From Okamejei kenojei (taxonomy: Eukaryota): a stretch of DNA of 64,000 nucleotides. Location of the stretch: assembly GCA_035221665.1 (NCBI GenBank), contig CM069140.1:28830001-28894000 (forward strand), in the 5' to 3' direction. Position 1 is the first letter of the stretch. The number at the start of each line of letters is the position of its first letter. The translations under genes and the position numbers were made by a program. Positions 7,176 through 59,095 of the stretch are shown here, in pieces. The notes under the pieces were generated by a model. That model was not told the origin of the DNA. It saw only the letters and a program-made list of their open reading frames with translations, and made no database searches.

Positions 7176-10100
7176 CATCAGCCGCTTCTCTTCTCTGGTG
7201 TGTTGTTTCCTGGACCACAATGGAAAATCTCCACCCATTCCATATGTCTGAATCCACTCTCTTTTCTCAAGCTCACTGAGAATCCACCGCCATCATTACA
7301 GTTCCCCCGAGTGAACCCTATTTTCTCATTTTGTTCAGGGTCCTTGTCCTGATACTGACCCAAGTAACTTCATCATCAGCTTGATGCAGAGCCCCTCGAA
7401 TCTTTCTGCTTGAGGAAACAGAGTTTGACTTGTAAACAAGATCATCCTGGTACAACAATGGTACAACAATGTCTAAAATGTCACACTACACGGTGCACCC
7501 AATTCTTGAAGGTCTGCTCATATTATGTTTGCTAAATCACTGTCTACATACTCTAATAAAAATATATATTTAAAAAAAAATTATATATATATATATTATT
7601 TTAAAGGGAGTGATACGTTTATTAAGAAGAGTCTCGTCCTGAAACGTCACCTATTCCTTCTCTCCAGAGATGCTGCCTGACCTGCTGAGTTACTCCAGCA
7701 TTTAGTGTCTATCTTCGGTGGACACCTTTATTAAACTGGGGGAAATAGTCATAAATGTGGACTTTGCTAAATTGTGTATGGCAGGTGATAGTGAAATACT
7801 TGGTGTGTCCAACTCCTACTGAGGATTGCAATGGACTGGCAATCTGCTGACATTGTTGCATGTCAAAGGGGTCGCACACAAACACAAGCACCGTCAGGAT
7901 AATTGTAGAAGTGTTCTTGCTGGCCAACATGGATGCAATGGGCTGAAGGGCCTGTTACCCGGCTGTTTGATTCTATGACTCTGGGGCTGACAACTGAACT
8001 AACATTCGCAGAGATTACAGAGTTAATAATCAATTGAGCTGATTATAAATGTATTAAAAACCAAAATCAAGATTTGTTAATTGAACTACTTAGTCAAAAA
8101 GGACACTTTAAAGCTATTTAATGTGTGGAAGGGTTTGTAAATCTATGGTAAAATTTGCATTTGTAGTGTATATAATTTTTACACTTGACACTCCATAAAT
8201 GTATTACTGTTCAGGGCTTGTAAATGCATATGAATTGCTTGTAAAAAATTAAACATATAGGTTGATTTATCAAAGGCCATGTGAGGAGATTGCTCATTGA
8301 AATATATTGAACTGCTAAAACCCAAAGGCTATTTGAATCAAGGAGACTGGCCACTTAGGAGCTGGGTACGGAATAAAAATTCAGGAAACTGAGATTTGTG
8401 GCCATAGGGATCCAGGCGATCAGGTAATGAATGGGTCACTAAAGGAATGAATAGAGAGGTGAGGTTGCTGGAGACTTTAAAACAATGGCACAATGTTGTA
8501 TAATGTCTAAATGGTTCATAGGAGCTGTCCCAAATAACATTTAATTCTAAATCACATGTACCAAGTCTGGTTCCTTCTATCTACTACATATACAATGATA
8601 ATCCCTCACTCTGTTATAGCAGACAATCAGATTTAACAGATACCATTTCCTTCCCTTATCGTAACGATGTAACGAGGGTTTACTGTGCACTCTCTAATCC
8701 AGACAGAGTTAGTGTTAATGGCAGAAAGGTTACGGGACATTTCCAGAAAACTGGAACAGGGGCAGAATTTGGATGATCAGTCATGATCACGTTGAATGGC
8801 TGGGCAGGCTCAGAGGGCCGAGTGGCATCCTATTCCTATTTTCTATGTTTTTGCATAGGACATCAGAGCATAGAGTCATAAATGGAAACAGGCCCTTTGG
8901 ATATGGAATGGAAACGGCCCTTCGGCCCAACCTGTCCATGCTGAGCAGGTTAACTGCACTGCTTATAAATGAGCCTCTGGCCCATTTTCCTAATTTTTGC
9001 CGGCTATTCAACTGTACATTGGCACAGTGTGCTTCTACGTAAGTCCAGCATATCGTCAACGGGGAATCCAATGACCTCTGTGCTGCAGCAAGCTTTTTGA
9101 ATGGTTGGTATTAAAATGTGGAAAATGCAGTGCGAGTCTGTGCAGCATAAACTCCTCTAAACAGCAGGAGTGTAGATGCTGGTTTATACCAAAAATAGAC
9201 ACAAAGTGCTGGAGTAACTCAGCGGGTCAGGGAGCACCGCTGGAGAAAAAGGACAGGTGATGTTTCGGGTCGGGATCCTTCTTCAGACCATCTTCACCCA
9301 TCCTTTTTCTCCAGAGGTGCTGCCAGACCCACTGAGTTACTCCAGCGCTTTGCATCTATCACCTCTAAAGGGTGATTGTTTTCTTTTAGTAGAGAATTAA
9401 CCGTTGGGTCATGCACTGGGACAGCTCCTATCCCTTCACCAAAACGCTCGCATAACATGTGAAAGATGGCACCCCTGGCAGGGCTCCCGGAGAATGGTCC
9501 AAGTAGCCAGCTGAACCCCTCAATCTGCCTGGAATGTAAACCTGCATTTGTACTGACGTCTTGGAGTAATGAAGGGAGTGGAGCAGGTTTATTAATCAGA
9601 CATGCTGTTTGACATGATTAGCTTAAAGCAAGCCAGCGAATGCTTGACACTGAGTCGTCCAGGAGATCTCTGCAGACACATTATTGCAGAGAGAGACAAC
9701 ATGCCTCTGATGATGATTGAAGACCAGCCTGCTTGTTTCAAAACGGGTGGCAACCTACTCACTGCTTCTGCCATCTCCAAGTCATCCGACTGATCATGTG
9801 GCTCTCAGCACCGTATGAGCAGAAATCTCCGCCAGTGGGGAGAAAGGGTCAGAATTTAGGAGATAACGTGTGTGGAACTTTCTCACCCCCTGTGATTGAC
9901 CTCAACTTTGGAACCATGACTTGGGATCGGCCAGGCTTTAGTCTGAGCACTGATGCTGGACTCCGCATGGAATTCAGCAGAGGAGAGAGATCTTGGGCTA
10001 AGTGGACACACTAGACATTCACTCCAGAAGACAAAACATTGCTGGAGTCTCTCATCGGGCCAGGCAGCATCTCTGGGCAACATGGATAGGTGACGTTTTA

Positions 10101-10486
10101 GGTCGGGTTGCTTCAGACATTCATTCCAGTTGTGAGGAAGCACAACGGGGAAGCCACCTATTGATTTCAGTGGAAGGTAACAGCTGCAAAAAGCCTCTTA
10201 ATTATTTTTCCATACATTAAACGTTTTACTTTATTTATTTTTTTATTTTTTATAATATTTTTTGCAATCAGATAGCTCACAACCTCCATTTCCATTTCAG
10301 ATCTGGTCCTTCTGTCCATCTTGTAGCCATGTCTGACTACTTGGATATGCAAGGAATGGAGGGATATGGATGACATGTGGGTAGAGGAGATTAGTTTAAC
10401 TTGGCGTTCTGTGAGCTGAAGGGCCTCTTCCCGTGCTGTTCTATGTTCTATGTACTTCATTCTCCCTCCGCCCATCTGTCTCACCA

Positions 10487-10777
10487 TTTGAGATCAACGA
10501 TGCAGGCCTTCGGCCCACTGTGTTCGCGCTGAACAGCAATCACCCCGTACACTAGCACCATCCTACACACCAAGAACAATTTACAATTTTTACCGAAGCC
10601 AATTGACCTACAAACCTGTATGTCTTTGGAGTGTGGGAGGAAATTGGAGCACCCGGAGGAAACCCAAGCAGTCACAGAGAGAACGCACAGACTCCGTACA
10701 GAGGGCACCCGTAGTCAGGATTGAACCTGGGTCTCTGGCGCTGTAGGGCAGCAACTCTACCGCTGCGCCACTCTGCT
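10487..10777 (-). mobile_element. tRNA-derived V-SINE (HE1-like)
   Basis: Same family sequence. Confidence 0.85.
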
Positions 10778-11237
10778 GACCTCATTTCTTGCCACTGACC
10801 TGATTAGTTCAAAGAAGTGAAATTGAATAATGTTATTCCAACACGCTCCTGGCTGCCCTAACTCACTCTACTCATTGTGAATGAGGGCGGGCAAGTTGGG
10901 CCGAAGGGCCTGTTTTCACACTGTATGACTCAATGACTCTATGAGTGTATTACGGGGAGAAGCTTGTCATGAGGATTAGATTCATGGCTCCTGATATCAA
11001 AGCTTCATCCTGAACAACTGCAGGTATTGATGTGGGACACAAAACCACAGTCCTTCTGACCGCCCAGCGACCCGCTCATTCATCAATGCTGCAAGCGATC
11101 CCAAGTACGGCAATATGTCAAATGGTTCTCTTCATACCGAGAGATAGAAACACTGGTGTATCTTGGTGCCGTGGCAACTGTCACCATGAGGTGAGTAAAT
11201 CCTGAGTAGTTTGCTCAATATAAACAAAGTTTTGCTT

Positions 11238-11529
11238 GGTTTAGAGATACAGCGCGGAGACAGACCCTTCAGCCCACTGAGTCCGCACTGACCACAATCC
11301 CCACACATTAACACTGTCTTACTCACACGAGAGACAATTTACATTTATACCGAGCCAATTAACTTACAAACCAGTACGTCTTTGGAGTGTGGGAGGAAAC
11401 CGAAGGTCTTGAAGAGAACCCATGCGGTCATGGGCAGAACATACAAACTCCGTAGTCGGGATTGAACCCGGTCTCTGGTGCAGTAAGCACTGTAAGCCAG
11501 CAACTCTACAGCTACACCACTGTGCTGCC
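11238..11529 (-). mobile_element. tRNA-derived V-SINE (HE1-like)
   Basis: Same family sequence. Confidence 0.8.
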
Positions 11530-12420
11530 CTTGAGAGACTTGTATTTGTACCGCATCTTTCATTATATCAGAGCACCACCCAGTTCTGTAGAGGAAGCTC
11601 AGTGCTCTCTGAACTGCTGCAATGTCAGAAGTATGGCAACTGGTTTGTTCCCCATTCAGTGATGATAATAGCTAAATAATCTGATGTACTCTGATTGAGA
11701 CATACGTGAATTGGCCAGGATCCCGGGAATAATTCCACTGCTCTTGGGAGTGTCTGCATGAGAGAGGAATCGAATGGATGTTGGATCTGATGAAAGGGTG
11801 CAATATGTTGGCCCAATGATAGCAGAATCCACAATAAACCCCCCCTTCCACCTGAAGAAGGGTCTCTGCCCGAAACGTTACCTATTTCCTTTGCTCCATA
11901 GATGCTGAGTTTCTCCAGCATTTTTGTCTACCTTCGATTTCCCAGCATCTGCAGTCACTTCTTAAACATTCAACCTCATCGATGCCCAATTGTCCAACCA
12001 TAATCTGTGGAATGCTGCTCAGCACATAATTTCCTGAATTACAGTACTGAACAGCTTTGAAAATACATAATTAGTTGCAAAGTTATTTCTGGATGTCTTA
12101 AGGTCAGAAAGTGGATGCATCACCTTCTTTGGCAGGGCATTCTGGATTCAAACCATCCTCTGGGTGAATAGATTCCTCCTCAGATCCCATATACACCTTT
12201 TATTCCTCACCTTACACCAATATCTTTGGCATGGTGCAAATGTTCTTCCTATCTATCCTATGTGTTGCTTTCATAACTTTCCTTCATGTTCCCCCTCCAC
12301 CTACTCTGCTCCATGGAGAAAAAAACTCAGCCACCCCATCTCTCTCTGACTGAAACATTCCAGCACAGGCAATGTGCTGGTGAATTTCTGCACCATCTCA
12401 TCAGTAGGGAGGTCAGTGGT

Positions 12421-12731
12421 GGCTCAGTGGCGCAGCGGTAGAGTTGCTGCCTTACAGCACCAGAGACCCGGGTTTGATCCTGACTACGGCTGCTGTTTGT
12501 ATGGAGTTTGGATGTTCCCCCCTGTGACCCCGTGGGTATTCTCCGGGTGCTCTGGTTTCCTCTCACACTCCATTGACGTGCTAGTTTGTAAGTTACTTGG
12601 CTTCTGTAAATTGCCCCTAACGTGTAGGACAGAACTAGTGTATGGGGTGGTTGCTGGTCAGCATGGTCTCAGTGGGCCAGAGAGCCTATTTCCACGCTGT
12701 ATCTCTAAACTAAACTAAACTAAACTAAACT
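12421..12731 (+). mobile_element. tRNA-derived V-SINE (HE1-like), full length
   Basis: A-box TGGCGCAGCGG, B-box-like GGTTTGATCC, central GGTTTCCTC.CAC domain, CR1-like 3' end and (CTAAA)5 tail. Confidence 0.9.
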
Positions 12732-12732
12732 C

Positions 12733-13575
12733 AATCAATCAGATTTATTCATCACATACACAATAGAGTGCAGTGAAATTAACTTGCCAGCAGCGGTACA
12801 ATAAAAAAGAACACACAATACACAATAAAAATGGAACACAAACATCCACCGAGCATTCTTCAGTGTGGTGAAAAGCACAAAGTACCATCAGTCCTCCTCC
12901 ATTTCCCCCGTGGTCGGGGCCATAAACCTCCGCAGTCGCCGCAAGGGCGGCCAGATGACAGGCCCTCTCATCTGGAAGGTAAGTCCCGAATCGGTGCTTC
13001 CCTATCGGAGACCGCAGTTTCAGGATGACGTAGGCCGCAGGCTGGCGGTCGGAGCTCTTCTCCAGGGATTCCCAGGAGAGGGATCCAGCTCCGGAAGGTA
13101 AGTAAGTCCCCGCCGCGCCCACGGCTAGAAGCTCCGCAGACGGCGGCCTCAAGATGTTGTAGGCCGCAGGCCAGTGGGTCGGAGCTCTTCTTCTCCGGGG
13201 GTCCCCAACGAGGGATCCCAGGCTCCGGACGCCGCACCCGCGGCTAGAGGCTCCGCAGCTTCAGACTGAACAGTCCACGGGCCAGCGATCGGTAAAAGTT
13301 CACGCTGCGCCTGTTGCTGAAGCTCCGGGCCCGACTCCGGGAAAGGCCGCACCAATCCTTGGTGCTAGGCCATGAAGGAGGCGACATGGATTTAGTCTGT
13401 GGAGGAGGCGATCGAGAGCGGTTTCCCCCTTACCCCCCCTACACCACCCCCCATGCAAAACACACTGAGAGACATTAAAACACACATTTAGACATACAAA
13501 AAAAAACAAAAAAAAGTAGAAATCTCTAACACGAAATGACTAAGACGGCAGGACAGCTGTCTCACAGCGGCCCCA
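12733..13575 (-). mobile_element. GC-rich non-coding interspersed repeat, tail-to-tail with a SINE
   Basis: Minus-strand end aatttcactgcac...tgatgaataaatc(tgat)n; layout as 6225-7175. Confidence 0.55.
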
Positions 13576-14109
13576 CCGACGTATACTGAATCAGTATGTG
13601 TAGGAAGGAACTGCAGATGTTGGTTTACACCGAAGATAGATAGAAATTGCAGGAGTAACTTAGCAGGACAAGCAGCACCTCTCGATAGAAGGAATGGGTG
13701 ATGTTTTGGGTCCAGACCGTTCTTCAGACTGAGCCTGAGCCTGGCTGAAGAAGGGTCTCGACCCAAAATGTCACCCATTCCTATCCAGAGATGCTGCCTG
13801 GCCTGCTGCGTTACTTCAGCATTTTGTGTTTATAAACAAAATCAGAATTGTACACAGTACTGCAGCTACGCCCTAACTAATGCCGTAAAGTTATACCATA
13901 GCTGGAGAACTGTGTACAGTTCTGGTTTCCGTACTATTCTGCACACTGGCTTATGAAGACAAAAATGCCATGTGCATCTCCACTACCTTTAGCAATCATT
14001 GTTCTTGGTCGAGATCTCTGCATTTTTGTTCAATACTCCCTAAGGCTCTAGATATGGTCGTTATCTACTCTTGTTAGACAGCCCTAAGAGCGTTTCCTCA
14101 CACGTTCCC

Positions 14110-14677
14110 TAGTGAGACCACACCTGGAGTACTTTGTGCAGTTTTGGTCCCCTAATTTGAGGAAGGACATTCTTGCTATTGAGGGAGTGCAGCGTAGGTT
14201 TACAAGGTTAATTCCCGGGATGGCGGGACTGTCATATGCTGAGAGAATGGAGTGGCTGGGTTTGTACACTCTGGAGTTTAGAAGGATGAGAGGGGATCTC
14301 ATTGAAACAGATAAGATTGTTAAGGTTTTGGACACGCTAGAAGCAGGAAACATGTTCCCGATGTTGGGGGGATCCAGAACCAGGGTCCACAGTTTAAGAA
14401 TAAGGGGTAAGCCATTTAGAACGGAGACGAGGAAACACGTTTTCTCACAGAGAGTGGTAAGTCTGTGGAATTCTCTGCCTCAGAGGGCAGTGGAGGCCGG
14501 TTGTCTGGATACTTTCAAGAGAGAGCTAGATAGGGCTCTTAAAGATAGCGGAGTCAGGGGATATGGGAAGAAGTCAGGAACGGGGTACTGATTGGGGATG
14601 ATCAGCCATGATCACATTGAATGGTGGTGCTGGCTCAAGGGGCCGAATGGCCTACTCCTGCACCTATTGTCTATTGT
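14110..14677 (+). mobile_element. CR1/HER1 LINE 3' fragment
   Basis: RPHLEYFVQFWSP...RRMRGDLIE...FSQRVVSLWNSLP, then a 3' UTR ending (ctattgt)2. Confidence 0.9.
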
Positions 14678-15278
14678 ATCAGGATTCAATTACATCTGCT
14701 ATTGCTCTGCCTAATTTTTCTCTCCAAACCTACAGGCATTGCCACCTCTACCTGGCCATTGCATTTTAAAACCTACATTTCCAACTGCACCAGTTTTGAA
14801 TTTGATGTGTTAACATTCTTGTGAAGTATCTTGGGATGCTCTATTTTGTTAGAGGCATTAAATGAATGAATGCGTTTGGTTGCTATAAACAGATCTCACA
14901 CTCCTAGGAGAGGCTTGCTCTCAGTAATCGGTCCCTAATAAATCTCATGGTCACTGTGACACATAAACTGGGCAGTCATTAAATATCCCACATCTGTGAC
15001 AGAATAGTGCATACACAGTAAAAGAGGTCAGAGTTCTGACTACAAGGCGGTAGGCAGCTTACTCAATAAACACAAACTCGCTACAGATTCCAATAAATAT
15101 TGATACAATGCTGCTGTATCACCAGCTAATGTTCATAATATTTAGGAGCAGAATTAGGCCATTTGGCCCATCAAGTCTACTCCACCAATCAATCATGGCT
15201 CATCTATCTTTCTCTCTCAATCCCATTCACCTGCCTTCTGCAGGTTACCCCTGACAACCATACAATCACTCAAGAATC

Positions 15279-17128
15279 CGTATTCTTCTGAAGACCAGAT
15301 CCCGGGCATTCAGGTCAGGAGATGCAGAGGTCCACAAGAAGTCCAGATATGACCTTGGTAAGGCCATCAAAAAGGCCAAAAGGGACTTCTGCTCCAAGCT
15401 GGAGGATGAGACGGATGTTCGGCAACTGTGGCGGGGCTTGAATGCCATCATCTTCTGCAAAACGAAATCAGGAGGCAGCTCAAATGTCAGCAAAGCATCA
15501 CTCCCTGACGAGCTCAATGCGTTTTACGCAAGCTTTGATAGGAAGGACACTGATGTGCCTTCCCGAGCCCCCATTCACCGTGATGGTATTTCAGTCTCAG
15601 TCACAGAGGCCGACGTCAGAAGATCCTTCAGAGAGGTGAACCCTCAGAAAGCGCCTGGACCTGATGGTACACCCGGTCGTGTTCTCAAAACCTGTGTAGA
15701 CCAACTGGCTGGAGTTTTTAACGGACATTTTCAACCTCTCACTTCTGAGGTCTGAGGTTCCCACCTGCTTTAAAAGGGCATCAATAATGCCGGTGCCTAA
15801 AAAGAGCAAGGTGACGTGCCTCAATGACTATCGACCAGTGGCACCAACGCCTGTGGTGATGAAGTGCTTTGAGAGGTTGATTATGGCGCAAATCAACTCC
15901 GACCTCGACATGAACCTTGACCCTCTGCAGTTCGCTTAGCGCCAAAACAGGTCAACGGTGGACGCGATCTCGCTGGCTCTCCACTCCGCTCTGGACCACT
16001 TGGACAACAAAATCTCATATGTCAGGCTGTTGTTCATAGACTACAGCTCAGCGTTTACTACCATCATCCCCTCCAAGCTGGTTACAAAGCTCTCAGATCT
16101 GGGTCTCTGCGCATCCCTCTGCAATTGGATCCTCGACATCCTCATTCACAGACCACAGTTTGTCCCTATTGGTGGAAATGTGTCAGCCTCGATAACAATC
16201 TGCACGGGAGCAGCTGAAGGCTGCGTGCTCAGCCCCCTGCTGTACTCACTCTATACTCATGACTGCGTAGCCGGTCATAGTGCGAACTCCGACATCAAGT
16301 TCGTCGACGACACCACTGTTGTGGGACGTATCACTGATGGTGATGAGTCAGAGTATAGAAGTGAGATCGACCGATTGACCAAATGGTGCCAGCACAATAA
16401 CCTGGCCCTCAACACCAGTAAAACCAAGGAACTGATTGTGGGCTTTGGAAGGGGTAGGATAGGGACCCACAATCCCGTTAATATCAACAGGTCGATGGTG
16501 GAAAGGGTCAAGAGCTTCAAATTCCTGGGCATGCATATTCCTGAAGATCTTTCCTGGTCCCAGCACACTGATGCAATTATAAAGAAAGCACATCAGCGCC
16601 TCTACTTCCTGAGAAGATTACGGAGAGTCGGTGTGTCAAGGAGGACTCTCTCAAACTTCTACAGGTGCACAGCAGAGAGCATGCTGACTGGCAGCATCGT
16701 GGCTTGGTTCGGCAACTTGAGCGCCCAGGAGCGGAATAAAATGCAGAAGGTTGTGACCACTGCCCAGTCCATCATCGGCTCTGACCTCCTCACCATCGCA
16801 GGCTGCCACACACTCATCTCTCCATTGCCATCGGGATAGTACAGGAGCTTGAAATCTGGAACAACCGGGTTCAGGAACAGCTGCTCCCCCACAGACATCT
16901 GGCTATTAAACACAACATTAAACAAGCTCTGAACAATAACAGTCTATTATTACTAATGCATTTTATCTGTTTATTTATTGTGTATATATATATGGTCTAT
17001 GATACATAGTCACGCTGAACTTTTATCTCCTTCTCTGTTTTACGTTTATATATTCTGTTGTGCTGCAGCAAGCATGAATTTCATAGTCCTACCTGGGGCA
17101 CATGACAATAAAACTCTCTTGACTCTTG
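15279..17128 (+). mobile_element. Rex1/Babar-type non-LTR retrotransposon, 5'-truncated, RT pseudogene
   Basis: RT motifs [49 protein letters not shown]; 3' end gacaataaa plus (ctcttga)2; putative TSD AAGAATC at 15272-15278 and 17129-17135. Confidence 0.85.
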
Positions 17129-17653
17129 AAGAATCTGTCAATCTCCGCATTAAAATAGTAAGATTAAATGAGAACTTACCAGTTCGAAGTTTGATCTGTA
17201 TTTTATGAGGAGTTACGATGAGGGATTACGTGAAGACCCCGTCCAGCACGCATGCGCGACATTCTTCAAAGCAGCGGTGTGGATTCACAGAAAAAACACA
17301 ACGATTGAAATATAGTAAAGAAAAAATAAGAACTAAATTACCAGTTGATCTGTATAATAGAGGGTGGGAGCGGAGGGCACGTAATCCCTCATCGTAACGC
17401 CTCATAAAATACAGATCAAACTTTGAACTGGTAAGTTCTCATTTAATCTTACTATTTTATTTCGGAGTCACGTGAGTGACTACGTGAAGACTTCAAAGCT
17501 CTGTGATTCCGAACCGTGTACCAGCTCATGCTTCACTCACTGTCTGAAGACCTTAGAGGGAGGAAGTATGTTATCACAATCAACAATAACCTGTTGTGAA
17601 CAAAAAGGTTTATTAATGACAACAAAAAAACAGAGAGCTCCCCCGGGCTTAAA

Positions 17654-18640
17654 TTAAACATTATCTGCAGACTCTAAAATTCTGTCTGCAAATGTAGCAG
17701 GTTCCGCCAGCGGCTTATTATAAAGTCTTTGGAAAGTTCTTTCCGAGGACCATCCTGCTCTTGCCAGAATATGGTCCATAGGCACGTTCATTCGCCTAGC
17801 CGCCGACGTAGATGCAGCCCTGGTGGAGTGAGATTTGTAAACATTAGTATTAACTCCCACTGACTTAAGCACCTGCTTGAGCCACCTTGAAATGGTTTGG
17901 CTCGTCACCTGACCATGAGGCTTCTTGTGGCTTATCCATAAGGCTTTTTCTCTCCCTCTTAAGTTGTATGTTGTGTCTATGTAATTGGCGAGATGGGTCT
18001 TGGCACACAGCCGTGGGTCAGATGAATATGCCCGGAACTCCATGACTGGAGGCGTGGTACCTGGTCTAGTTTGTTTGACCAGTCCCTGAATATGAAATGT
18101 GAAACAGTCCAATGACTCTGTCATGCTGTCCAGCCTCAGAAGGTGGAGGGACTGTACCCTTTGAGCTGACACTAGTGCCATGAGCATGACGGATTTCAGA
18201 GTAAGTTGTTCCAGCGTGAGTGCCCTGGGTGGTGGCCATCCCCTAAGGTACGTCAGCACAATGCTGACATCCCAGATCTGTGTGTACCTTGGTCTGGGGG
18301 AATTAGTGTTAAAAATGCCCCTCATGATTTTGACCACTAGTGGATGGGACCCCAAAGCCAGTTGTCCTGCTGCTGGAACCAAATAAGCTGACAACGCACT
18401 CCTGGCTGTATTTATAGCGCTGTAGCTGAGTCCATCCCGATGTAATCCAACCAGAAACTCCACAACACTGGTGGCTGTAGCTGTAGTGTAGGTAGTTCCT
18501 GTTTTGGAGCAATACCGTTCCAATTTCCTTATGTTGGTCAGGTATTGTCTCCTGGTGGACTCCCGGTGGGATGCGGTCATCATGTTGATGGCGTCCTCAG
18601 ACAGTCCCAGGCCCAGTAGAGGTCTTTTTAGAATCTGCAA
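17654..18640 (-). CDS. DIRS tyrosine recombinase (open ORF, ~328 aa)
   Basis: SAINTARSALS in the N-terminal domain; catalytic-type motifs R (SAQRVQSL), HSTR (HxxR), AGW, and Y (TFQRLY). Confidence 0.92.
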   Translation of the reverse strand: MQILKRPLLGLGLSEDAINMMTASHRESTRRQYLTNIRKLERYCSKTGTTYTTATATSVVEFLVGLHRDGLSYSAINTARSALSAYLVPAAGQLALGSHPLVVKIMRGIFNTNSPRPRYTQIWDVSIVLTYLRGWPPPRALTLEQLTLKSVMLMALVSAQRVQSLHLLRLDSMTESLDCFTFHIQGLVKQTRPGTTPPVMEFRAYSSDPRLCAKTHLANYIDTTYNLRGREKALWISHKKPHGQVTSQTISRWLKQVLKSVGVNTNVYKSHSTRAASTSAARRMNVPMDHILARAGWSSERTFQRLYNKPLAEPATFADRILESADNV

Positions 18641-19097
18641 GCCAGGAGATGGACTCTGTCATGGCACGGGTGACTAATGCCTGACACTGGGTGGATTAAT
18701 AATTCTGGACTGCTGGGGAATTCCAACGGTGTTTCGACAGCCATGTCGAGGGCCACTGGGAACCATGGCTGTGTAGGCCAGTCAGGTATTATCAAGATTC
18801 CTGAAGCGGAATCCAATTGAATCTTGCGTAATACCCGACTGATGAGGCAGAAGGGAGGAAAAGCATAAAAGAACATTTTCCCCCAATGCAGCGTGAATGC
18901 ATCAACTGCTGCTGCCTCAGGGTCTGGTTCCCAAGCGACATACGTTGGTACCTGGTGATTCAGCCCGGATGCAAATAGATCGATATCTGGTATGCCATTT
19001 TGCTTTGTAATTTCAGCAAAAACTTTGGGATTTAACATCCATTCGATGTTATCGTAAAATTTGCGTGACCTGGCGTCCACCACTGTATTTTGCTTAC
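18628..19097 (-). pseudogene. DIRS pol C-terminal part: end of RNase H plus DNA N6-adenine methyltransferase-like domain
   Basis: KQNTVVDARSR (RNase H end), DIDLFAS, YAFPPF (NPPF-like), PDWPTQPWF; cut off from RT by the Penelope insertion. Confidence 0.85.
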
Positions 19098-19740
19098 ACA
19101 AAACCCCTGGACCATGACCCCACTGACGAACACCAGGCCACCATCTCGAGCACCATAACCGACCTCATCAGCTCCGGCTCCCTACCCCCCCGAGCCTCCG
19201 ACCTCATCGTTTCCCAGCCCCGCACGGCCCGATTTTACCTTCTCCCCAAAATCCACAAACCCGACTGCCCTGGCAGACCCATTGTCTCTGCCTGTTCGTG
19301 CCCCACCGAACACATTTCCACATACCTTGACGCCATCCTATCCCCCTTTGTTAAATCCCTCCCCACATATGTTCAAGACACCTCAGACACTCTCCGTTGG
19401 CTCCGTGCATTCCATTCTCCAGGCCCCCATCCTCTCATCTTTACCATGGACGTCCAGTCACTCTACACCTCCATCCCCCACCAGGACGGTCTCAAAGCCC
19501 TCCGGTTCTTCCTCGACCAGAGGAGCAACCCATACCCGTCCACTGACACCCTCCTCCGCCTAGCAGAGTTGGTCCTCACCCTCAATAACTTCTCTTTTGA
19601 TTCCTCCCATTTCAAGGAAGAAGGGTCTCGACCCGAAACGTCGCCTATCTCCTTCTCTCCTTAGATGCTGCTGCACCCGCTGAGTTTCTCCAGCTTTTTG
19701 TGTACCCTCGATTCTCCAGCATCTGCAGTTCCTTCTTTAA
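19098..19740 (+). mobile_element. Penelope-like element (PLE) fragment inserted into the DIRS RNase H, 17-bp TSD
   Basis: PLE RT motifs PRTARFYLLPKIHKPDCPGRPIVS and DVQSLYTSIP, followed by the hammerhead-type tail. TSD CACTGTATTTTGCTTAC at 19081-19097 and 19741-19757. Confidence 0.9.
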
Positions 19741-20930
19741 CACTGTATTTTGCTTACCTGGTAGGTAAGTTGCTGATAACCAAATATGTCTTTCGACACA
19801 CACCATTGCCAGATTAGGTTGACCAAATTGTCACACGATATCGACTTTACACCACCCATGTGGTTGATATAAGCCACCACCGTGGTATTATCTAATTGCA
19901 ACCGGACATGTGCATGATGCGTATTAGATGAATATGCTTTTAAACCATAAAACGCACCCAACATTTCTAAGTAGTTGATACCCCGTGTCTGTAGGCAAGA
20001 TGATTCAGAGTTAGTCCATCTGCCCCCTGTGCTGGATTGCATGTTAGTTGCTCCCCAGCCCAGAGCACTGGCATCCTTCGGCAGAGTTACAATCATGCGA
20101 ACAGTGTCAATCGTAAATCCAAGATAGTCCATGGTAGTGGACGGCATCAAATTGGATTTATCTGGATGTATGACAAATCCCAAAGTTTCAAACAAACGTT
20201 TGGTGGCTGCAACTGCCAAAATAGCTCTCTCCAAGGTTTTCCCTACTATTAAAATGTCGTCTAAGTATGCCATGACTATATGCTTTTGTTTCCTCAATAA
20301 TGCCAAAGCAGGTTTCAAAATTTTAGTGAACAACCTTGGAGCGGAGGTTAGTCCATTTGGTAAGGCTTTAAATTGCCATAGCTGTTTCATCCAGATAAAC
20401 TTTAAGTATTTACGATGCTCCTTATGTATGGGTACTGAATAGTAGGAATCTTTTAAATCAATGCTTGCTAGAAAGTACCCTCTAAAAACCAATAGTCTGG
20501 CTGTTTCAAAAGTTTCTATCTTGAAATGTATATACTTAACAGACTCGTTTAAAGTAGTTAAGTCAATGATGATGCGACATCCACCATCTTTTTTAGTTTT
20601 AGTGAAAATATTAGACACAAATTCCAAAGGTTCATGTTTTGTTCTTTCAATGACACCTTTTGCTAGTAGCCTCATCAGTTCAGCTTGACCCTCTTGTTTC
20701 TCTTTGACTGAGAGGGTAAATACCCTTTGGGGTATATATGCTGAACTGGACAAAGTCAGTTTTCATGAACAAAGTCAATTTTGTAGCCATGAATGCTGCT
20801 GAGTATATACTTGTCATTAGTGATGGATTCCCATGCATCCAAAAACAAGTGCAATCTCCCCCCTGTTAGTATAGAGCCCCTACTGCTCATATGTTGAGAG
20901 GAACCAGACCCACCTACCTCCATGGTTATT
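19741..20930 (-). pseudogene. DIRS reverse transcriptase/RNase H, frameshifted and internally deleted
   Basis: GGRLHLFLDAW, RIIIDL, SIDLKDSYY, LPNGLTSAPRLFTK, YLDD, DASALGWG, INYLEM, LDNTTVVAYINHMGG. Frameshifts near 20755 and 19787; the RT-RNaseH connection is missing (VTLPK joined directly to DAS). Confidence 0.9.
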
Positions 20931-21059
20931 GGTGCTTCTTCTGCCTCTTCGCTGGACGATGAGGTGTCTGCTGGGTAGTAGAGGGCTGCTGTTGATGTTG
21001 ATGTTGATGTTGATGGGGGTGGCGCATTTTCCATGGGGTCCACTCTGGGCCCTGGCCTA

Positions 21060-22154
21060 AAAAGGCTTACGGGGAATGGTTGCGGACCGCGAGCTTTCAC
21101 CAGTCCCATATGGTAGTCGACGACTGGTGGACGCCGTGGGGTACTGCCGCCTGGGTTTGTTAGGTCTGCTCAGTCCCAACCTGCCCTCACGGGACCAAAG
21201 GTCTTGGATTCTTCCTCTAGGTCTTTCACCTTTTTCGGAAAGTCCTTTCCAAAGAGCAGAATTGGAGGTTCTGAACCCGGTGTTTTGCAAAGTCCCGCAA
21301 ACTTTGGGTTGAGAGCAGGCTTGATGATTTCCTTCCGTAAATAGTGTATCTCATATTGAGTGGTGCACAGCAGAGCTAATATATCTTGCTGATTTGTGGA
21401 GATGGCCACACCATCAATGGACCGAGCATATTAGTTCAAGAGCCTCATTGACCACCCGTTCTTGTAGGGGTTGTGAGGACGGGTGGTCAATGCTGGCTGC
21501 AAGTTTCGGCTCTAAAGGCCGACCCGCTCGTGGAGTGGCCACGTAGCGGTTGACCACACCCAGCAGCTCTTCCTGATCCTGTACACCCTGCTTACTCCGG
21601 ACATCTTCAGCCAGTGACCCCTCTTCTTGACCAGCCCAGACCTGGTCGCCAATGCTGCCTTCGAAAGAAGGTGAAGCAATGGCCAGTGCCGTAAAGGGCA
21701 CTGCGGGAGTGCCTGAACTCCCTTGGCGAGTCTGCTGCTGCTCTCTCAGCAGATCTCGCTGGAGCAATTGCTCCATAAGCCGTTCCATGCGGCTTAGGCG
21801 GCTGCCTGTGTCGCTCTCGAGCGGTGAGGCATCTTCATCCGAATCGTCGGACACTACCGCCCGGTTCTGGCTGCAGGTACCTCCAGCCCGCTGCTCAGGC
21901 AGCACGAGCGGTGCTGGGCTCGGCTCGGTAGTCAATCCTGCCGCCTCTTGCCCCCCCTCCAAAGAACATTCCTCAACGGGAGACGAACGGGGCAAGCTGC
22001 AGATTTCTTCCCTCTGGTCTTGCTCATTCTTCCTGGAACACAAGCAGACCACAGGGAAAATACACACGGCCACGGTAAAACTTACCTGTCGGCCCGACTT
22101 TTTAATTTGTAGCGGGAGCGCCTTGAACTTCCGTTCATCGCGGGTGCACTGCAT
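21060..22154 (-). pseudogene. DIRS ORF1 (gag-like), fragmented
   Basis: Broken ORFs (21414-22154, 21170-21409, 21057-21290) between the 5' ITR and RT; RKEIIKPALNPKFAGLC...LLFG resembles DIRS ORF1 ends. Assigned mainly by position. Confidence 0.6.
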
Positions 22155-22225
22155 GAACGCTAATGTCGCGCATGCGTGCTGGACGGGGTCTTCACGTAGT
22201 CACTCACGTGACTCCGAAATAAAAT

Positions 22226-50800: not shown

Positions 50801-52319
50801 TCCTTTCAGGAAAATAAGACGATGGAAAAAGATCGTACGCAAAAAGCACGGGTCACCCAAGGAAAAACTGCTTTCCTGAACAGTAAAAAGAGAGATTGGT
50901 GGAGTGAGTGAGGATCGGGGGGTGGAGGGAGGGAGGGAAGGAGGGAGGGAGGGGTGGGGTGCGGGTTGGTGGAGAGAGAGGGGATCGGAGGACTGGGGTG
51001 TGAGTCGCCCACTTCTGGTGACGGCTGCACCTTAACATAGAACAGTCCAGCACATGTTTTGCGCCTGAACATGACGCCAAGTTAAACTGATCTCATCTGC
51101 CTGCACATGATCCATATCTCTCAATTCCAGGTACTTCCATGTGCCTATGTAAAAGTCTCTTCAATGCCACTACTGTATCTGCCTCCAGCCTGACAGTGTG
51201 TTCCAAGCCCCCACCACTGTGTAAAACGTTGCTCCGCACATCTCTATTAAACCTTCCCCCTATCACCCTAGAGCGATGCCCTGTAGTGTTGGATATTTCC
51301 GCCCTGGGGGAAAAAGGTTCTGGCTGTCTACCTTATCGAAGCCTCCCATAATGTTGTATACTTCTATCAAGTCTCCCCTCAGCCCTGTGTGCAGGAAGGA
51401 ACGGCAGATGCCGTTTTACACCGAAGATAGACACAAAATGTTGGAGTAACTCAGCGGGTCAGGTAGCATCTCTGGAGAAAAAGACTATGTCGGACTATCC
51501 GCCTGAAGAAAGGTTTTGACCCGGAAAGTCTCCTATTTCTTTTCTCCAGAGATGCTGCCTGACCCACTCCAGGATTTTGTGTCTATCTCCCCTCAACCCT
51601 TGCGGCTCCCTGCCTGTTAGCAGATCATCGGACGAGGTTATGTATTCCTGCCCCTGGGCAGGGTATCGGCATCCATGCAACATATAACCAAGAGTGGTTG
51701 TGAGCATCGAACAATGAAGGGGCAACTCAGCATCCCAAAGGTTAATTGTCTCTCAACGCAGGAAGTATGAAGTGAAAATGTCTGTGTAAAGATCGGTAGG
51801 TGAGCAAATGTTACGGAAACTCCCCAGAGTGCGAGACGAGCTAAAGAATAAATATCAGGATGGGTTTAATAAAACTCCAGGCTGCGGGAAGGCGATCTGT
51901 CAGCCAATATTGATGAGTGCCTCTGGGGAAAGCAGGGTGCTCCTGGCTGTCATCAGAGCCCTGCCAAAGTTGTTGTCAGTCGGTCAGCCAAGTCCCACTT
52001 TCCTGTCTGCAGGGAGGCGAGCACACTGCCGTTATAGACCCCACCGTACATCAGAGCTCCAGGCTTCAAACCGCCGCTCGCAGTTATTCGAGCACACGGA
52101 TCAGTTCACACTGCTCACCCAGGGACGGGGTCCTGACCAGGAAAGGACAGGGGGCAGTGTGAGATTCCAGTCAATAAGGCAGAAAAGAGGATGATAAATG
52201 AACAAACAGGGCCACTAGTGAAAGGAACACTTATCCGCTGTCTGGCACTGACTGATCTGTTTCAGTCTCACCACCTGCATAGGACACACTGGGTAAAATG
52301 GAACACCCCTGTCATAATT

Positions 52320-52930
52320 TCATAGGTTCTAGGAGCAGAATGAGACCATTCGGCCCATCAAGTCTACTCTGCCATTCAATCATGGCCGATCTATCTTTCC
52401 CTCTCAACCCCATTCTCCTGCCTTCTCCCTGTAACTCTGCACCCTTACTAATCAAGAATCTGTCAATCTCTGCCTTTAAAAATATCCATTGGCCTCCACA
52501 GCCGGCTGTGGCAGTGAATTCCACAGATTCACCACTCTCTGACTAAAGAAATTCCTCCTCGGCTCTGTTCCAAAGGTGCGTCCCTTTATTCTGAGCCCCC
52601 TGTTCCTAGACTCTCCCACTATTGGAAACATCCTCTCCACATTCACTCTATTCAGGCCTTTCACTGTTCACTAAGTATCGGTGAGGGTTCCCAACCACCG
52701 TGCCTTCAAACACTCATCATATATTAACCCAATCGTTCCTGGGATTATTCTAGTAAAACCTCCTCTGGATCCTCTCCAACACCAGCACATCCTTCCTCGG
52801 ATATGGGCCCAAAACTGCTCTCAATACTCCAAATGCAGTCTGACCAGTTCCTTATAAAGTCGTAGCATTACATCCCTGTTTTTGTATTCTAGCCCTCTCG
52901 AAATTTTGCAATTGCTTTCCTTACTACTTA
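52320..52930 (-). mobile_element. CR1 LINE 3' fragment
   Basis: RGLEYKNRDVMLRLYKELVRLHLEY; RRNFFSQRVVNLWNSLP. Confidence 0.8.
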
Positions 52931-53957
52931 TTGGACTCGCAAAGTAACCTTTTGTGAATACTGCTGCAACGCTCCCTTGTCCCTTTACACCTTCGATTTC
53001 AGAATCGTAGAACCATGCGGCATGGTAACGGATGCTTGGGATAAAACTCTTCCATGCCATGCCCAAGATGCCCAATCTAAGCTGGTCCTACTTGCCTGCG
53101 TTTGGCCCATATCCCTCTAAACAATTTCTATCCATATACCAGGATATTATTTAAACCTTAGGACAGGTTTAAGGTGAAATGTGAAAGATTTAATGGCAAC
53201 CTGAGGGGTAACTTTTTCCCACAAAAAAGGTGAATGAGCTGCCGGAGGAGATAGTTGAGACAGGTAATATCTGAATGTTTAAGAAACATTTAGACAGGTA
53301 CTTGGATAGGACAGTTTAGAGGACTATGTGCCAAATGCAGGCAGGTGGGACTAGAGTAGATTGGATATGTTGGTCGATGTGGGCAAGTTGGGCTGAAGGC
53401 CTATTTCTACACTGTATCACTCTGACTCTAAGATGGGAAGCTCTTGTCGGGTGAGAGAGGTGTAGTCTGTTTTCAATTCCTTGTCCCTCACCCGAGTCTG
53501 TAATTAGTTGGTTGGAGGGAACATTGGGCTCGTTGTTCTACCTCTGTCCTCCTCCCCACCATCCCCTCCCTCCACATTACAGCAACCCTTGTCAGCTCTG
53601 AGTGAAAGCAGATCAAAGATGGGGGAGTGAGCTGAGCCAGAATGAGCGCGGGCTCTGTACAAGCTGACTGTGTGTTGACAAGTGTGGGAAACTTGCAGCA
53701 TTGTTGGACAGAGAGAACTCGTGCTCGAACTTTGGACACGACAGGCTGTCTGAGAATGTACATTGAAGCGATCATGACACATGCCATTTTCAGGTTTATT
53801 ATTGTCACGTGCTCCAAGGTACAGTCAAAAGCTTTTATTTACATGCTATCAAATCAAATCAGATAATACTATACATAAATACAATCAACCAAATTCAAGC
53901 ACAGTAGGTAGAGTGAACAGAGTGCAGACTATAGTTCTCCGTATTGAGACGTTTGAC

Positions 53958-54246
53958 TTTAGAGATACAGCATGGAAAAGGGCCCTTCGGTCCACCGGGT
54001 CCGTGCTCTCCTGCGATCACCCCGCATGTAGCGCTATCCTACACGTCAGCGACAATTTACAATTTTACAGTTCAAGTAAGCTACAAACCTGTATGCCTTT
54101 GGAGTGTGGGAGGAAACCAGAGCACCCAGAGGTTACCCACGCAGCCACCCGGAGAATGGATAAACCCTGTGCAGACAGCACCCATGGTCAGAATCAAACC
54201 CGGGTCTCTGGCACTGTAAGGCAGCAACTCTATCGTTGCGCCACTA
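53958..54246 (-). mobile_element. tRNA-derived V-SINE (HE1-like)
   Basis: Same family sequence. Confidence 0.8.
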
Positions 54247-54639
54247 CTCTTGTAGTGTAACAGTTCCAGAGGAAAGAAATCCAATGTTGGCAATGAGGTA
54301 GGTTGGAGAATTGGCCCGACACCCTAGCTCATGGAAGGACTGTGCACAAGTCTGATAACTGAGGGGAAGAAGCTGTTCCTGGGACTGGTGGTGCGCCCTC
54401 TCAAGCTTCTATATTTTCATCCCGAAGGGAGTGGGGAAACGAAGGAATGGTTGGGGTGGGAAGCTTTGACAAGCTATGCCTAGTTCCTGACCTTTTGCAG
54501 ATTGTCATACACTGTTGAAATTGAGGATTTAAGGTACGATGCAAATACATTTGGAATGATTTACAATTGAGCAGTGTGTCCAGAACAACACCATAATAAG
54601 CAGTGGGCTCTGGAATGCCAGACCCACGTACATTTGAGG

Positions 54640-55310
54640 TCGAGGTGGCGGCCTCGTCCAGCAGTCTGTGTGTTATTTCAACTTTTTTTTGTTCTTTTTA
54701 GTGTGTCTAAAATGTATGTTTTAATGTTCTTCTGTATGTTTTTATGTCGGGGGTGTGGGGGGGGGGGGAATATGGAGAAACCTTTTTCAGTAATTTGATC
54801 TTTCCCCGCCCCCCCCTTTGCGGCCTAACAACTGGTTTGGTGCGGCCTTTCCTGGAGACTGGCCCGGAGCTTCAAGCTGCAAGCGTGGCGCGGACTTATC
54901 ATCGCGGAGCGGCCGTGCCTTTGTCGAGGATCGTTGTGGAAGTGCTCGGACCACGGAGCTTGTGGCCTTTAACATCGTGAAGCCTGGTGGTCTCCGGTAA
55001 GAAAAGGCCGGCACGGGAGCTCCTTGCCACGGAGCGTTCCGATCCGTCCAGAGTTTCGATCATCCTGACGAGAGGGGTTGAACAGCGGACCGTCGGCAAC
55101 GGTCCCGTTCAAAGGCCCCGACCACAGGTGAACAAAGGAGGAAGATGACTGAACTTTATTACCTTCCATCACAGTGAGGAATGTTGATTCCACTGTGGTG
55201 GATGTTTATGTTAGATTTATTGTTTTTGTTTTACTTGTATGGCTGTATGGTAACTCAAATATCACTGCACCTTAATTGGGCCTGTGATAATAAATGTGAA
55301 CTTGAACTTA
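54640..55310 (+). mobile_element. GC-rich non-coding interspersed repeat with a Rex1/L2-like tail
   Basis: Shares ggtgcggcctttcc.ggag...gcccggagcttca with the 12733-13575 copy; ends gataataaatg(tgaact)2. Confidence 0.55.
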
Positions 55311-55489
55311 TCAGGTCTTGGTACTGGTACCATTAGGACATTTAACATTGATAAAAGTGCTACACAGTAGCAGTTTTCTGGAATGGAATGGAAAAGAATG
55401 ATTGTGATTTAATCGTCTTTTCAGTTTCAAAGGAATTGGTAAGGATGGCAAACTGAAATTATCTGCTGGTGTGGGAAGTAAATGGAGTT

Positions 55490-55648
55490 GGGCCTGTCCC
55501 ACGGGGCGTCATTTGCGCGTCACGCAGGTGGCGGGCGAAGGTTTTGTGAATCCCAAAATCCTGGGGCGCCGCGCGACCGCGCGTCACTGCCTACGTCACC
55601 ACGCACCTTGCGCGTGTCGTGCAAATGACGCCCAAGTGGGACAGGCCC
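55490..55648. mobile_element. Short palindromic MITE with GGGCCTGTCCCAC termini
   Basis: GGGCCTGTCCCAC..GGGCGTCATTTGC pairs with GCAAATGACGCCC..GTGGGACAGGCCC; followed by TTA; same terminal motif as 29119-29433. Confidence 0.8.
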
Positions 55649-55955
55649 TTAGGCGGTAGAACAGGATCGCAACAAGTGGCAGAACAGAGCAAAGTTCATG
55701 TGAATTGTTCCCACGTGTGTGTGTTTACATGTACAGAGACTAGGCCGGAGACTCGCCAGGCTGTAGTGAAACATCACCTTTTTCATCTTATAGTCAAAAA
55801 TCTTTATTGTTATTGAATAATGGCATAAGTGTAAATGACGTACAAGGTTCACAGTGATTATTGTAGAGCATTGAAATGTGCAACACCATGTCTGTATGCA
55901 GATTGGTAGACCTTGCTGCCAATCTAACCAATCCATCTTTAGGTTTTACTTTACT

Positions 55956-56250
55956 TTTGAGATCCTGTATGGAAACGGGCCCTTTGGTCGAATGAGTCCA
56001 TGCGAGCAGCGATCACCCGTATACTAGTCCCATCCTCCACACTTGTAAGGATAGACAATTTACGGAAGCCAATTAACCTACAAACCTGCACATCTTTGGA
56101 TTGTGGGAGGAAACCGGAGCTCCTGGAAAAAACCCACACGGACACAGGCAGAACGTGCAAACTCCGTACAGACAGCACCCGTAGTCAGGATCGAACCCTG
56201 GTACCTTGCGCTGTACCGCTTCCTACCTCAACAGTTGTGCCACTGTGCCG
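55956..56250 (-). mobile_element. tRNA-derived V-SINE (HE1-like)
   Basis: Same family sequence. Confidence 0.8.
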
Positions 56251-56805
56251 CAGAGGAAGGGTTCCCACCTGACACGTCAGCTATCCATATTCTCCAGGGA
56301 TGCTGCCTGATTCAGCATCCTGATCCTGAGTTACTCCAGCACTTTGTGATTTTTATTTGCATTTTAACCAGCATCTGCAGTTCCTTGTTTCTAACAACGT
56401 TGGTTGAAGGTTGGGTTTCACCACCGTACCTGGGAGAACTCTCAACACTTTTACGAACATCCACATGAGGGCGCTTGTTTCAACGACCCATCGGAGGAAA
56501 GGGCCTGGGACTGTTCAGCACTCCCTCAGTACTACACTGGGGTCAGCCCTGACCTTGTACCCCCGTCTCTGGGCATGGGATAGGCCAACAGAAGCAAGAG
56601 TTCATCCACTGAACCTTCCAGAAGGTACCTGATAGTGTAATGTAGGACCACACATTGAGGCTATTTAAATAACGTCTACTGGTTGTCCTGTCATAGTGGG
56701 AGATCTTCCACTTGCGGGAAGCATTATCAATATACGAGGGTACTTGAAGCAAGGAGCACCATTGTCCACATTCATCCAGAGACTGCATTCGCATTCCATA
56801 TATCT

Positions 56806-57118
56806 GCGACACAGAGGCGCAGCTGGAAGAGCTGCTGCCTCGCTGCGCCAGAGACCCGGGTTCGATCCTGACCTTGGGCGCTGTCTGCGTGGCCTGTGCT
56901 TGTTCTCCCTCTGATCAAATGGGTTTCTTCCTGGTCCTCCGGTTTCTTTCCACATCCCAGATGTGCGGGGTTTGGAGGTTAATTGTCCTCTGTAAATTGC
57001 CCCGAGTGTGTGGGGTCTGGATGTGAAAGTGGGACAGCATAGGAATCGTGTGACCAGGTGATCGGCTGGTGGGCACGGACAGCGTGGGCCCATGCGGCCT
57101 GTCATGCGGTATCTTTAC
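56806..57118 (+). mobile_element. tRNA-derived V-SINE variant
   Basis: GGTTCGATCC B-box and V-domain; divergent 3' part. Confidence 0.75.
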
Positions 57119-58480
57119 ACTCAACTTGTCAGTGTGGGCACGTTGGGCTGAAGGGCATGCTTGCATACAATATGATCAGTTCAAATTGCTTGTGGCCACT
57201 GACACTTCTGCATGAGAGGCTCAGATCATGGAACTTACTGGTGTTCAGCAGCAGACAGGATAAAATAACTGGCATAGTGGGATGATGGGATCAAGGAAGT
57301 GTGGCTGGGAGATCTGTAAAATCATGCTTGCCTCTCTCTGAGTACAGGACCTCAGCATCATGTAGACAATGATGTGTCTTTTCTGACATTATTATGGTCT
57401 AACCCTGGAGAAGTGGTTTCTGGGTGATTTTGGTGCATTTATTGCTCTTGCTTGCAGCAGAGTTGGCTGTAGCTGAGGTTTTTTTGCTGTCTCAGGGACA
57501 CTCACACACTCACACGAACTGAGCATCTGCAGTTCATGTACAGTTCATTGTCGAGGTAGATGACGGGTGCGTGATGGGTTCCAGATTTTGCTGCCACGTT
57601 TCCAACATTACAACAGACTGCACTGAAAGTAGTCCATTAGATTGTGCAGCACTCTGGAACATCCTCCAACAGTGGAATGCACAGCTGAATTGAACGTTCT
57701 GGCAATGGTGAGATGTCCTTCCCTTGTGGAGATGCCAACCTTTGCCTGAATCAGCAGGGGGAGGGGAGGAGAAGGAATGGGGATTCTGTTCCAGGGAGAG
57801 GTCTGGTGTTCAAGCTCATTTACTGTCACCGAGTCTCTTGCCCAGAGTGGGGGAATGAAGACCCAGAGGGCATAGGTTTAAGGTGAAGGGGGAAAGATTT
57901 TATAGGAATCTGAGGGGTAACATTTTCATGCAAAGGGTGGTGGGTGTATGGAATGAGCTGCTGGAGGGGGTAGTTGAGATAAGGCAACATTTAAGAAGCA
58001 TATAAACATGTACATGGATAGGACAGGTTTAGAGGGATATGGGCCAAATGCAGGCAAGTGGGACTAGCGTAGATGGGACATGTTGCTCGGTGTGGGCAAG
58101 TTGTGTGGAAGGATCAGTTTCCTCACTGTATGGCTCAATGACTAGATGCATCAGCTGTGGGGGTGTCTATGACCTGGAGAGTGAGATGTAGGTGTTGACG
58201 GAAGCTGTCCAGTGCCCAGGGTTCATTGGTTCAAGACCACCTCCTGCTGTGTGGAGCACTCAACCAGGTGAGCATAGGTTGAGGTGCATTTGTCTTTAGT
58301 CTCACGTCTGATTACAATCCCATTTGGAAGGGGTCAAGAATCAATCATGTCAATGGCCCAACTGGTAGAGCTGCTGTCTCTCAAAACCAAAGACCCCCAG
58401 ATTCAATCCTGACCTCGGGTGCTGTCTATATGAAGTTTGCACGTTCTTCCCGTGACCCCATGGGTTTTCTCCGGATGCAT

Positions 58481-59095
58481 CGGCCTTTCACTATTCGGTG
58501 AGTTCCAATGAGGTGTCCCCTCATCCTTCTAATCTGCAGTGAGTACAGGTTCAGTGCCTTCAAATGCTCATTATATGTTAACCCAATCATTCCTGGGACC
58601 ATACTCTTAAACCTATTCTGGACCCTCTCCAATGCCAGCACATCCCTCCTCAGGTATGGGGCCCAAGACTACTCATAATCCTCCAAATACAGTCTGACCA
58701 GTGCCTTATAAAGCCTCAGCATTACATTGTGTGTCAGAAAGAACGGCAGATGCTGCTTTAAATCGAAGGTTGACACACAATGTTGGAGTAACACAGCTGG
58801 ACAGGCAGCATCTCTGTAGAGAAGGAATGAATGGGTGATGTTTTGGGTCGAGACCCCTCAGACTGAAGAAGGGTCTTGACCAAAACCGTCGCCCATTCCT
58901 TCTCTCTAGAGATGCTGCCTGTCCCGCTGAGTTACTCCAGCATTGTGTGTCTATCCTCAGCATTACATCCCTGTTTTATAAATTCTAGTCCTCTCGAAAT
59001 AAGTACCAGCATTGCATTCGCCACCCTTGCTACCGATTTGACTTGCAAATCAACTTTTTGGGAATCCTGCACCAGCAGTCCCAAGTCCCTTTGCA
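58481..59095 (-). mobile_element. CR1 LINE fragment interrupted by a PLE-derived inverted unit (58728-58954)
   Basis: ALERVQNRFKSMVPGM...RRMRGHLI; TSD CCTCAGCATTACAT at 58714-58727 and 58955-58968. Confidence 0.8.

Follow-up and report, generated by a model that had tools for sequence, protein, structure and literature searches.

A short repeat dispersed through a 64,000-nucleotide stretch of the Okamejei kenojei genome (GenBank assembly GCA_035221665.1, contig CM069140.1, positions 28,830,001 to 28,894,000, forward strand; the window hereafter) is very likely the pseudo-long terminal repeat (pLTR) end of an endonuclease-bearing (EN+) Penelope-like element (PLE), with a minimal hammerhead ribozyme that is intact in copying lineages and decays neutrally elsewhere. 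Here, we report the architecture of the motif, its parent element, its conservation between lineages, and the ends of its copies, which point to templates that were copied uncut. Positions within the repeat are counted from C3 of the hammerhead (position 0), with the predicted cut between +27 and +28.

Hammerhead motif and parent element

The motif matches, base for base, the >80% consensus of 56 metazoan PLE motifs (PMC4209133, Fig S3) in its CUGANGAH, G-helix II-C, GAAA, palindrome, and UH parts. This match supports its assignment to the minimal type-I hammerheads already described from PLEs, with one additional base following A9, as an initial annotation of the window had proposed. An unpaired base between A9 and G10.1 and a G10.1-C11.1 pair are present, helix II consists of 4 bp and a YYCG tetraloop, and the palindromic stem III of the initial annotation is the 4-nt ACGU that stands in place of stem III. 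Helix I has 2 bp (U-A or U-G, and G-C), in agreement with an earlier caveat that only about 2 bp of stem I were obvious; helices of this length also occur in the Culex and D. virilis rows of PMC4209133 Fig S3. All 13 core bases are present in full-length young elements and are the majority letter in five of six modelled subfamilies, with CpG-decayed letters in the core of the oldest. The number of subfamilies is not fixed (the Bayesian information criterion favoured 3-4 clusters); six were used for description.

A reverse transcriptase (RT) fragment from the window (19103-19613), used as a query, gave 150 scored genome matches at 96-100% identity, of which 20 were picked for long open frames (the long-ORF set; ORF, open reading frame). 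Five of these 20 loci (L023, L024, L026, L028, and L031) hold the core in both pLTRs, one unit of ~3.95 kb apart; it lies 127-128 nt upstream of an open frame of 1190-1197 codons and again ~237 nt downstream of the stop. The downstream core is found in 19 of the 20. The presence of the core in both pLTRs of full-length elements with RT and GIY-YIG domains supports the proposed derivation of the repeat from a PLE. The longest frame (1197 codons, stop to stop) matched RVT_1 (E 5e-6) and GIY-YIG (E 0.004), both under the Pfam curated cut-off, and holds DKG and YIDD motifs and a CX4CxxC linker at residue 1064. A zinc-finger-like CX2-5CxxC linker is a trait of Neptune or Nematis (PMC8557442), and the parent, an EN+ Penelope-like retrotransposon, likely belongs to the Neptune clade, with Nematis as the other candidate. 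In full elements the duplicated ends form partial tandems 179-898 bp long. Such tandems, together with inverted 5' copies and an optional 30-40-nt tail, are described as PLE features (PMC8557442), and all are seen here. The first ATG of the PLE ORF is overlapped at L023:2802-2831 by a strong donor-like sequence, AG/GTATG; splicing from this site into the next pLTR is unsupported.

The motif is far more abundant than expected by chance. One exact 31-mer had 12,105 matches in the 2.76-Gb genome (reversed control, 0), and a degenerate intact-core pattern had 60,441. In a sample of 140 blindly chosen 10-kb stretches (1.398 Mb), a profile search returned 632 matches, which extrapolate to ~1.25 million copies genome-wide. 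A structural descriptor of the minimal hammerhead gave 34 matches in the same sample, all from this Penelope pLTR family (reversed sequence, 0; shuffled sequence, 0, 0, and 0), and the sample held no second, distinct hammerhead family. A scan of the window with Rfam release 15 gave no hammerhead model match at E≤5. The initial annotation had called the repeat a high-copy self-cleaving RNA motif; the high copy number stands, and a population of working ribozymes on host pre-mRNA is not supported, with ~94% of copies (595/631) failing the descriptor. The fragments at L088, L160, L180, and L189 and several other genome matches are nested in other repeats and were re-amplified with them, as their common foreign flanks indicate.

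Conservation between lineages and uncut templates

Because dead copies decay neutrally, evidence of selection was sought between copying lineages, using the 361 of 632 copies that cover core and tail. Subfamily-defining positions, those whose minor allele is linked to distant sites, number 0/13 in the core and 0/24 among all constrained positions, versus 20/64 in the tail (Fisher P, 0.013 and 0.0006, respectively). Linked changes within the ribozyme are confined to loop II, C17 to U, and A/G at 1.1, all of them hammerhead compatible; 11.4 A to G (U-A to U-G) was borderline. In contigs of other organisms, 1.1 was the only ribozyme change at ≥10% in one set, C17 to U was the only one at ≥5% in a second set, and the same helix II was found throughout. 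Among scattered copies, identity at non-CpG core sites was 0.907 versus 0.898 at tail sites that are invariant (the set was selected for core coverage), and G12, the general base (PMC6155905), was changed to A in 69/291 copies versus 49/291 at a tail CpG. Scattered copies thus decay neutrally, G12 at the CpG rate, and the core is kept intact in copying lineages. Intact cores (36/631) fall in the younger subfamilies, with 13/48 in the youngest and 0/217 in the two oldest. Core conservation, proposed initially as a check together with stem II covariation, is therefore borne out at the lineage level; strict covariation is not, with no compensatory pairs in 291 copies. The claim that stem II variants keep pairing applies to wobble changes, a one-sided U-A to U-G change in helix II occurring in 22/276 copies with double changes not above expectation.

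The ends of the copies indicate how they were made. The sequence continues past the cut site in each of the 19 long-ORF loci that have a 3' core. The 5' edges of 552 de-duplicated copies lie at -4 or beyond in 136 cases and at -3..+2 in 165, with 5.8 per position at +3..+25. Clear continuation into a shared upstream pLTR was seen in 42 of 137 copies reaching -4. Young copies (n = 50) gave 23 edges at -5..+2, 11 extending upstream, and none at +25..+30; their 3' ends fell at +89-94 in 32 copies and +120-131 in 12, in a set that required a tail for inclusion and is thus blind to 3' ends at the cut. Nine of 30 loci holding the ORF start begin at -4..+4 and two begin at +23 and +25, and loose ends of other organisms' contigs pile up at -4..-2. 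With edges at the core start, few at the cut site, and loci running through it, we conclude that templates were uncut. The two 3'-end classes agree with the PLE "tail" and with the pair of RT start sites reported in PMC11167929.

The 609 copies scored for arrangement comprise 229 in head-to-head pairs, 349 solo copies, and 31 with a same-strand copy ≤400 nt upstream; tail-to-tail copies numbered 65 in a search span of the same size. Labelled head-to-head pairs join the same subfamily in 48/65 cases, and their junctions vary. All eight young pairs (L051, L068, L095, L097, L202, L208, L229, and L230) combine a short arm, ending at +89-92, with a long one, ending at +120-131. The idea that the pairs spread as a single amplified unit was rejected, since their junctions are not the same between pairs and young copies show target duplications of their own.

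Taken together, these ends suggest the following cycle. Element RNA would start ~3 nt before the hammerhead core. The element's protein would nick DNA and initiate reverse transcription at an internal RNA position, ~90 or 125 nt downstream of where the core begins, as suggested by the 3' ends and by the Anolis element. Copying would then pass the uncut ribozyme to the RNA 5' end and leave the observed 90-130-nt stubs, often two head to head, and longer runs from tandem transcripts would yield full elements with a partial tandem. Cleavage by the ribozyme would require a dimer or the element's protein and would serve to process element RNA; in host introns the ribozyme would be idle.

The pile-up of edges might instead reflect splicing into an acceptor that immediately precedes the core, or an RT stop; this is the main rival to a start site, and we consider it unlikely. 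A pyrimidine tract and AG do precede the core, and the D. virilis Penelope intron ends at helix I (PMC4209133), yet the arms of head-to-head pairs abut with hardly any foreign sequence or none between them, many edges (0..+2) would fall within the proposed exon, and no common upstream exon was seen. Splicing-out of the whole ORF was rejected, its junction having 3 genomic matches against 833 for the unspliced form. An extra G before the edge, as a cap would leave, was weakly indicated (20 of 50 sampled copies, P 0.04; 34 among the first 100 genome matches listed, counted by eye, P 0.10) and is not claimed.

Counting A(-3) as +1, the sequence conforms to the initiator BBCA+1BW (in older subfamilies, TCA+1GTY), places CGANC precisely at +18..+22, and has four of five bases of the downstream promoter element (DPE) at +28..+32; the initiator and downstream consensus are from PMC5580651, and Penelope has a TATA-less internal promoter (PMC2377424). 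The 32 bases could accordingly be conserved mainly as DNA, as an internal polymerase II core promoter with a weakened or vestigial ribozyme. The shrinkage of helix I to 2 bp and the uncut templates fit that explanation as well, but the promoter match was made post hoc, and the revised motif ten element is not matched in its CGG part. Moreover, all subfamilies keep CUGANGA unchanged although it is no promoter element, and the changes at 1.1 and 11.4 are the wobble-compatible ones. We regard a mainly promoter function as improbable, and promoter and ribozyme roles can coexist.

A combined reading is conceivable and is offered tentatively. The ~35 bases would be read twice, in DNA as a polymerase II core promoter and in RNA as a 5'-end hammerhead able to clip a capped leader of ~31 nt. 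The ~1 million stubs would be run-off cDNAs of uncut RNA, and a head-to-head pair would be the product of one enzyme dimer using two RNA sites, one per DNA strand; all eight young pairs have a short and a long arm.

Several points weigh against the reading of the repeat as a pLTR end with a hammerhead maintained in copying lineages and copied uncut. Compensatory double changes in helices I-III were not above expectation in 291 copies, which leaves base identity and wobble tolerance as the backing for the structure. Invariant blocks in the tail (+47-55 and +60-78) mean that invariance is not unique to the core, and CpG changes are difficult to place in lineages. Helix I has a predicted pairing probability of ~0, and folding of young RNA places the 5' half of the core in predicted pairs with the end of the tail, which would sequester the core. 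Predicted pairing of helix II is 0.4 and 0.04 in the two intact window copies, and the lowest-energy dimer prediction pairs helix II, not the palindromic stem III, between strands. Edges at +26..+30 number 26, where neighbouring positions predict 17 (P 0.03; a single flanking repeat is common to four of them), an at most weak excess that leaves room for a few cut templates. The putative RNA 5' end at about A(-3), on an initiator-like site, is read from DNA, and cleavage of the motif is a prediction from homology. For relatives, PMC4209133 describes no cleavage of a PLE hammerhead monomer and little of dimers, the Anolis PLE hammerhead was active only with the element's protein (PMC11167929), and dimer cleavage of PLE hammerheads is credited to Lunse et al. 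2017 in PMC6765202.

Copies in the window and in PBX intron 2

The motif is present at all 14 places listed in the initial annotation (minus-strand sites quoted by their low end), and a profile search found 36 window copies of the 90-140-nt repeat around it. The list described its sites as intact or decayed; only two of the 14, at 41183 and 42108, are intact in the 13 core bases and helices I-III, and they alone among the 36 copies passed all core and pairing tests. Copies at 9256 and 11851 retain the core bases and have lost pairing, and the remaining 10 have changes within the core. The first intact hammerhead (41181..41212, plus strand; C3 at 41183 and cleavage predicted after 41210, with a U-G wobble within its stem III palindrome) lies in a sense pLTR copy at 41100-41320. 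The second (42106..42137, plus strand; C3 at 42108, predicted cut after 42135) is in a copy whose tail is broken after 42158 by a different repeat. The pLTR tail from +47 to +125 (e.g., 41230-41310) has invariant blocks able to form a stem around a hairpin whose loop base varies among subfamilies; it is a candidate protein-binding signal near the two RT start points.

Decayed GIY-YIG C-termini were found upstream of both intact copies by tblastn with the full-length ORF (40846..40983 and 41817..41909, plus strand). A third C-terminal remnant with its pLTR (32798..33131, plus strand) contains the copy at 33043, whose core is broken by G12>T, and lies beside an inverted tail at 32697-32796. The copies at 33043, 41183, and 42108 are thus downstream of PLE GIY-YIG C-termini as first described, with the C-termini decayed. 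The peptide LGSLQPSGMN, placed at 32800, 40950, and 41890, occurs exactly only at 32798-32845; the other two remnants hold variants. A further GIY-YIG remnant, absent from the earlier list, lies at 30606-30740 (minus strand).

The young RT fragment at 19103..19613 (plus strand; 98.8% identity to a full-length unit) meets the motif at position +2 through a 3-nt linker, so the young pLTR piece at 19617..19744 (plus strand, +2 to ~+129) lacks C3-U4. The adjacency of motif and PLE RT annotated at 19098-19615 is real, and the layout is not the normal one; in whole elements the motif lies ~1.4 kb further down from the RT. The RT and pLTR pieces are bracketed by 17-bp direct repeats (19081-19097 and 19741-19757), and this composite (19103-19744) is inserted in a DIRS-like element (17654-22199, minus strand) with frames for a tyrosine recombinase (17654-18658), a methyltransferase-like protein (18628-19164), and an RT (19737-20762).

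Of the other pLTR ends, the one at 7624..7725 (plus strand) is 5' truncated with a broken core, and that at 11852..11968 (plus strand) has intact core bases and lacks the 5' strand of helix I. Minus-strand ends carry G12>A (26003..26128), G10.1>T (31741..31840), G5>A with G10.1>A (49002..49095), or, in a young copy, A9>T (50366..50461; helix II with a UUCG loop and a U-G closing pair). Head-to-head pairs lie at 9159..9360 (minus arm with 13 core bases kept and helices II and III broken), 13597..13833 (G12>A in both cores), 51388..51588 (plus arm with G10.1>A and A13>G), and 58730..58963 (both cores broken).

The host gene, which we take to be of the PBX family from its peptide motifs, has coding exon 1 at 36828..37003 and exon 2 at 37632..37705 (plus strand), and its intron 2 extends ~217 kb past exon 2. 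The sense copies at 41183 and 42108, annotated as lying in a PBX intron, are in intron 2. Counting a few kb past exon 3, there are ~76 sense and 73 antisense copies, and intact cores number 8 sense and 2 antisense (one gene, small numbers); the strand balance and this count give no sign that sense cores are purged. About 40 kb beyond the window in the same intron (L219:9740-10000 into L220), two intact sense cores 111 nt apart come from two subfamilies and share the same 13-bp target repeat, present three times. We read the pair as a second insertion at the same site and as a natural dimer candidate.

It is highly improbable that intact copies work as ribozymes genome-wide, cutting host pre-mRNAs such as PBX intron 2 and affecting expression. 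Such a role would draw on the 60,441 intact-pattern matches, on the 925-nt spacing of the two sense cores in the window, and on the close pair farther down the intron. Sense copies are, however, neither depleted nor clearly enriched in the intron, intact copies are mostly young, G12 decays freely, and relatives fail to cleave as monomers (PMC4209133) or when protein is left out (PMC11167929).

Immediately upstream of PBX exon 1, 34299-36500 contains GC-rich tandem repeats together with a long pyrimidine tract. Another abundant family of dispersed repeats, presumably short interspersed nuclear element (SINE)-like, spans 2925-60200 (families D4, D6, D10, D14, D19, and D20), and long interspersed nuclear element (LINE) RT fragments lie at 374-898, 14088-14591, and 15255-16839.

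Comparison with known systems

The motif shares with the minimal hammerheads of metazoan PLE pLTRs described by Cervera and De la Pena (2014, PMC4209133) CUGANGA, the extra base after A9, G10.1-C11.1, GAAA, an NUH site, a 4-nt palindrome without a stem III loop, presence in both pLTRs, and mostly solo and opposite-strand copies. It differs in its short helix II (4 bp and tetraloop) and in a 2-bp helix I, as in Culex and D. virilis. Its copy number is far above the 4,000-9,000 given for coelacanth and frog in that paper, in whose supplement file 2 no cartilaginous-fish terms were found. Rfam hammerhead families have the same catalytic core by inspection, and the motif here is without stem III and most of stem I.

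Like the Anolis carolinensis Poseidon element (PAc; Frangieh et al. 2024, PMC11167929), the element has a hammerhead at the pLTR-ORF junction, two internal RT starts 30-40 nt apart, an uncut RNA template, and priming of both strands. The PAc ORF starts inside stem II, whereas here the first ATG is ~160 nt after C3 and the zinc-finger-like linker (Neptune or Nematis type, PMC8557442) is present. Cleavage has been demonstrated for PAc, with protein assistance, and is predicted here from homology.

Non-LTR (long terminal repeat) retrozymes, found with a minimal hammerhead model in the one chondrichthyan sampled (bioRxiv 10.64898/2026.07.22.740005), are likewise PLE derived and hammerhead bearing. 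Retrozymes form tandem arrays, whereas 31/609 copies here are in tandem and the window holds no array, and that identity was rejected. This preprint was the only source that a literature search for cartilaginous-fish PLE hammerheads surfaced. The family may already be listed in its supplements, in those of PMC4209133, or in Lunse et al. 2017. A search for a PLE start site at the edge of a ribozyme, with most subscription journals outside its reach, found no paper.

What PLE hammerheads do is not yet settled (PMC8557442). This family, which is young and holds long intact frames, 60,000 intact cores, and copies with sharp ends, offers an in-genome test for uncut templates and a pointer to the RNA start. 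If the start site is true, the job of the ribozyme would be to decap or trim element RNA, not to release the copying template. The class has been known in print since 2014, and the family described here adds to it a cartilaginous-fish example at very high copy number.

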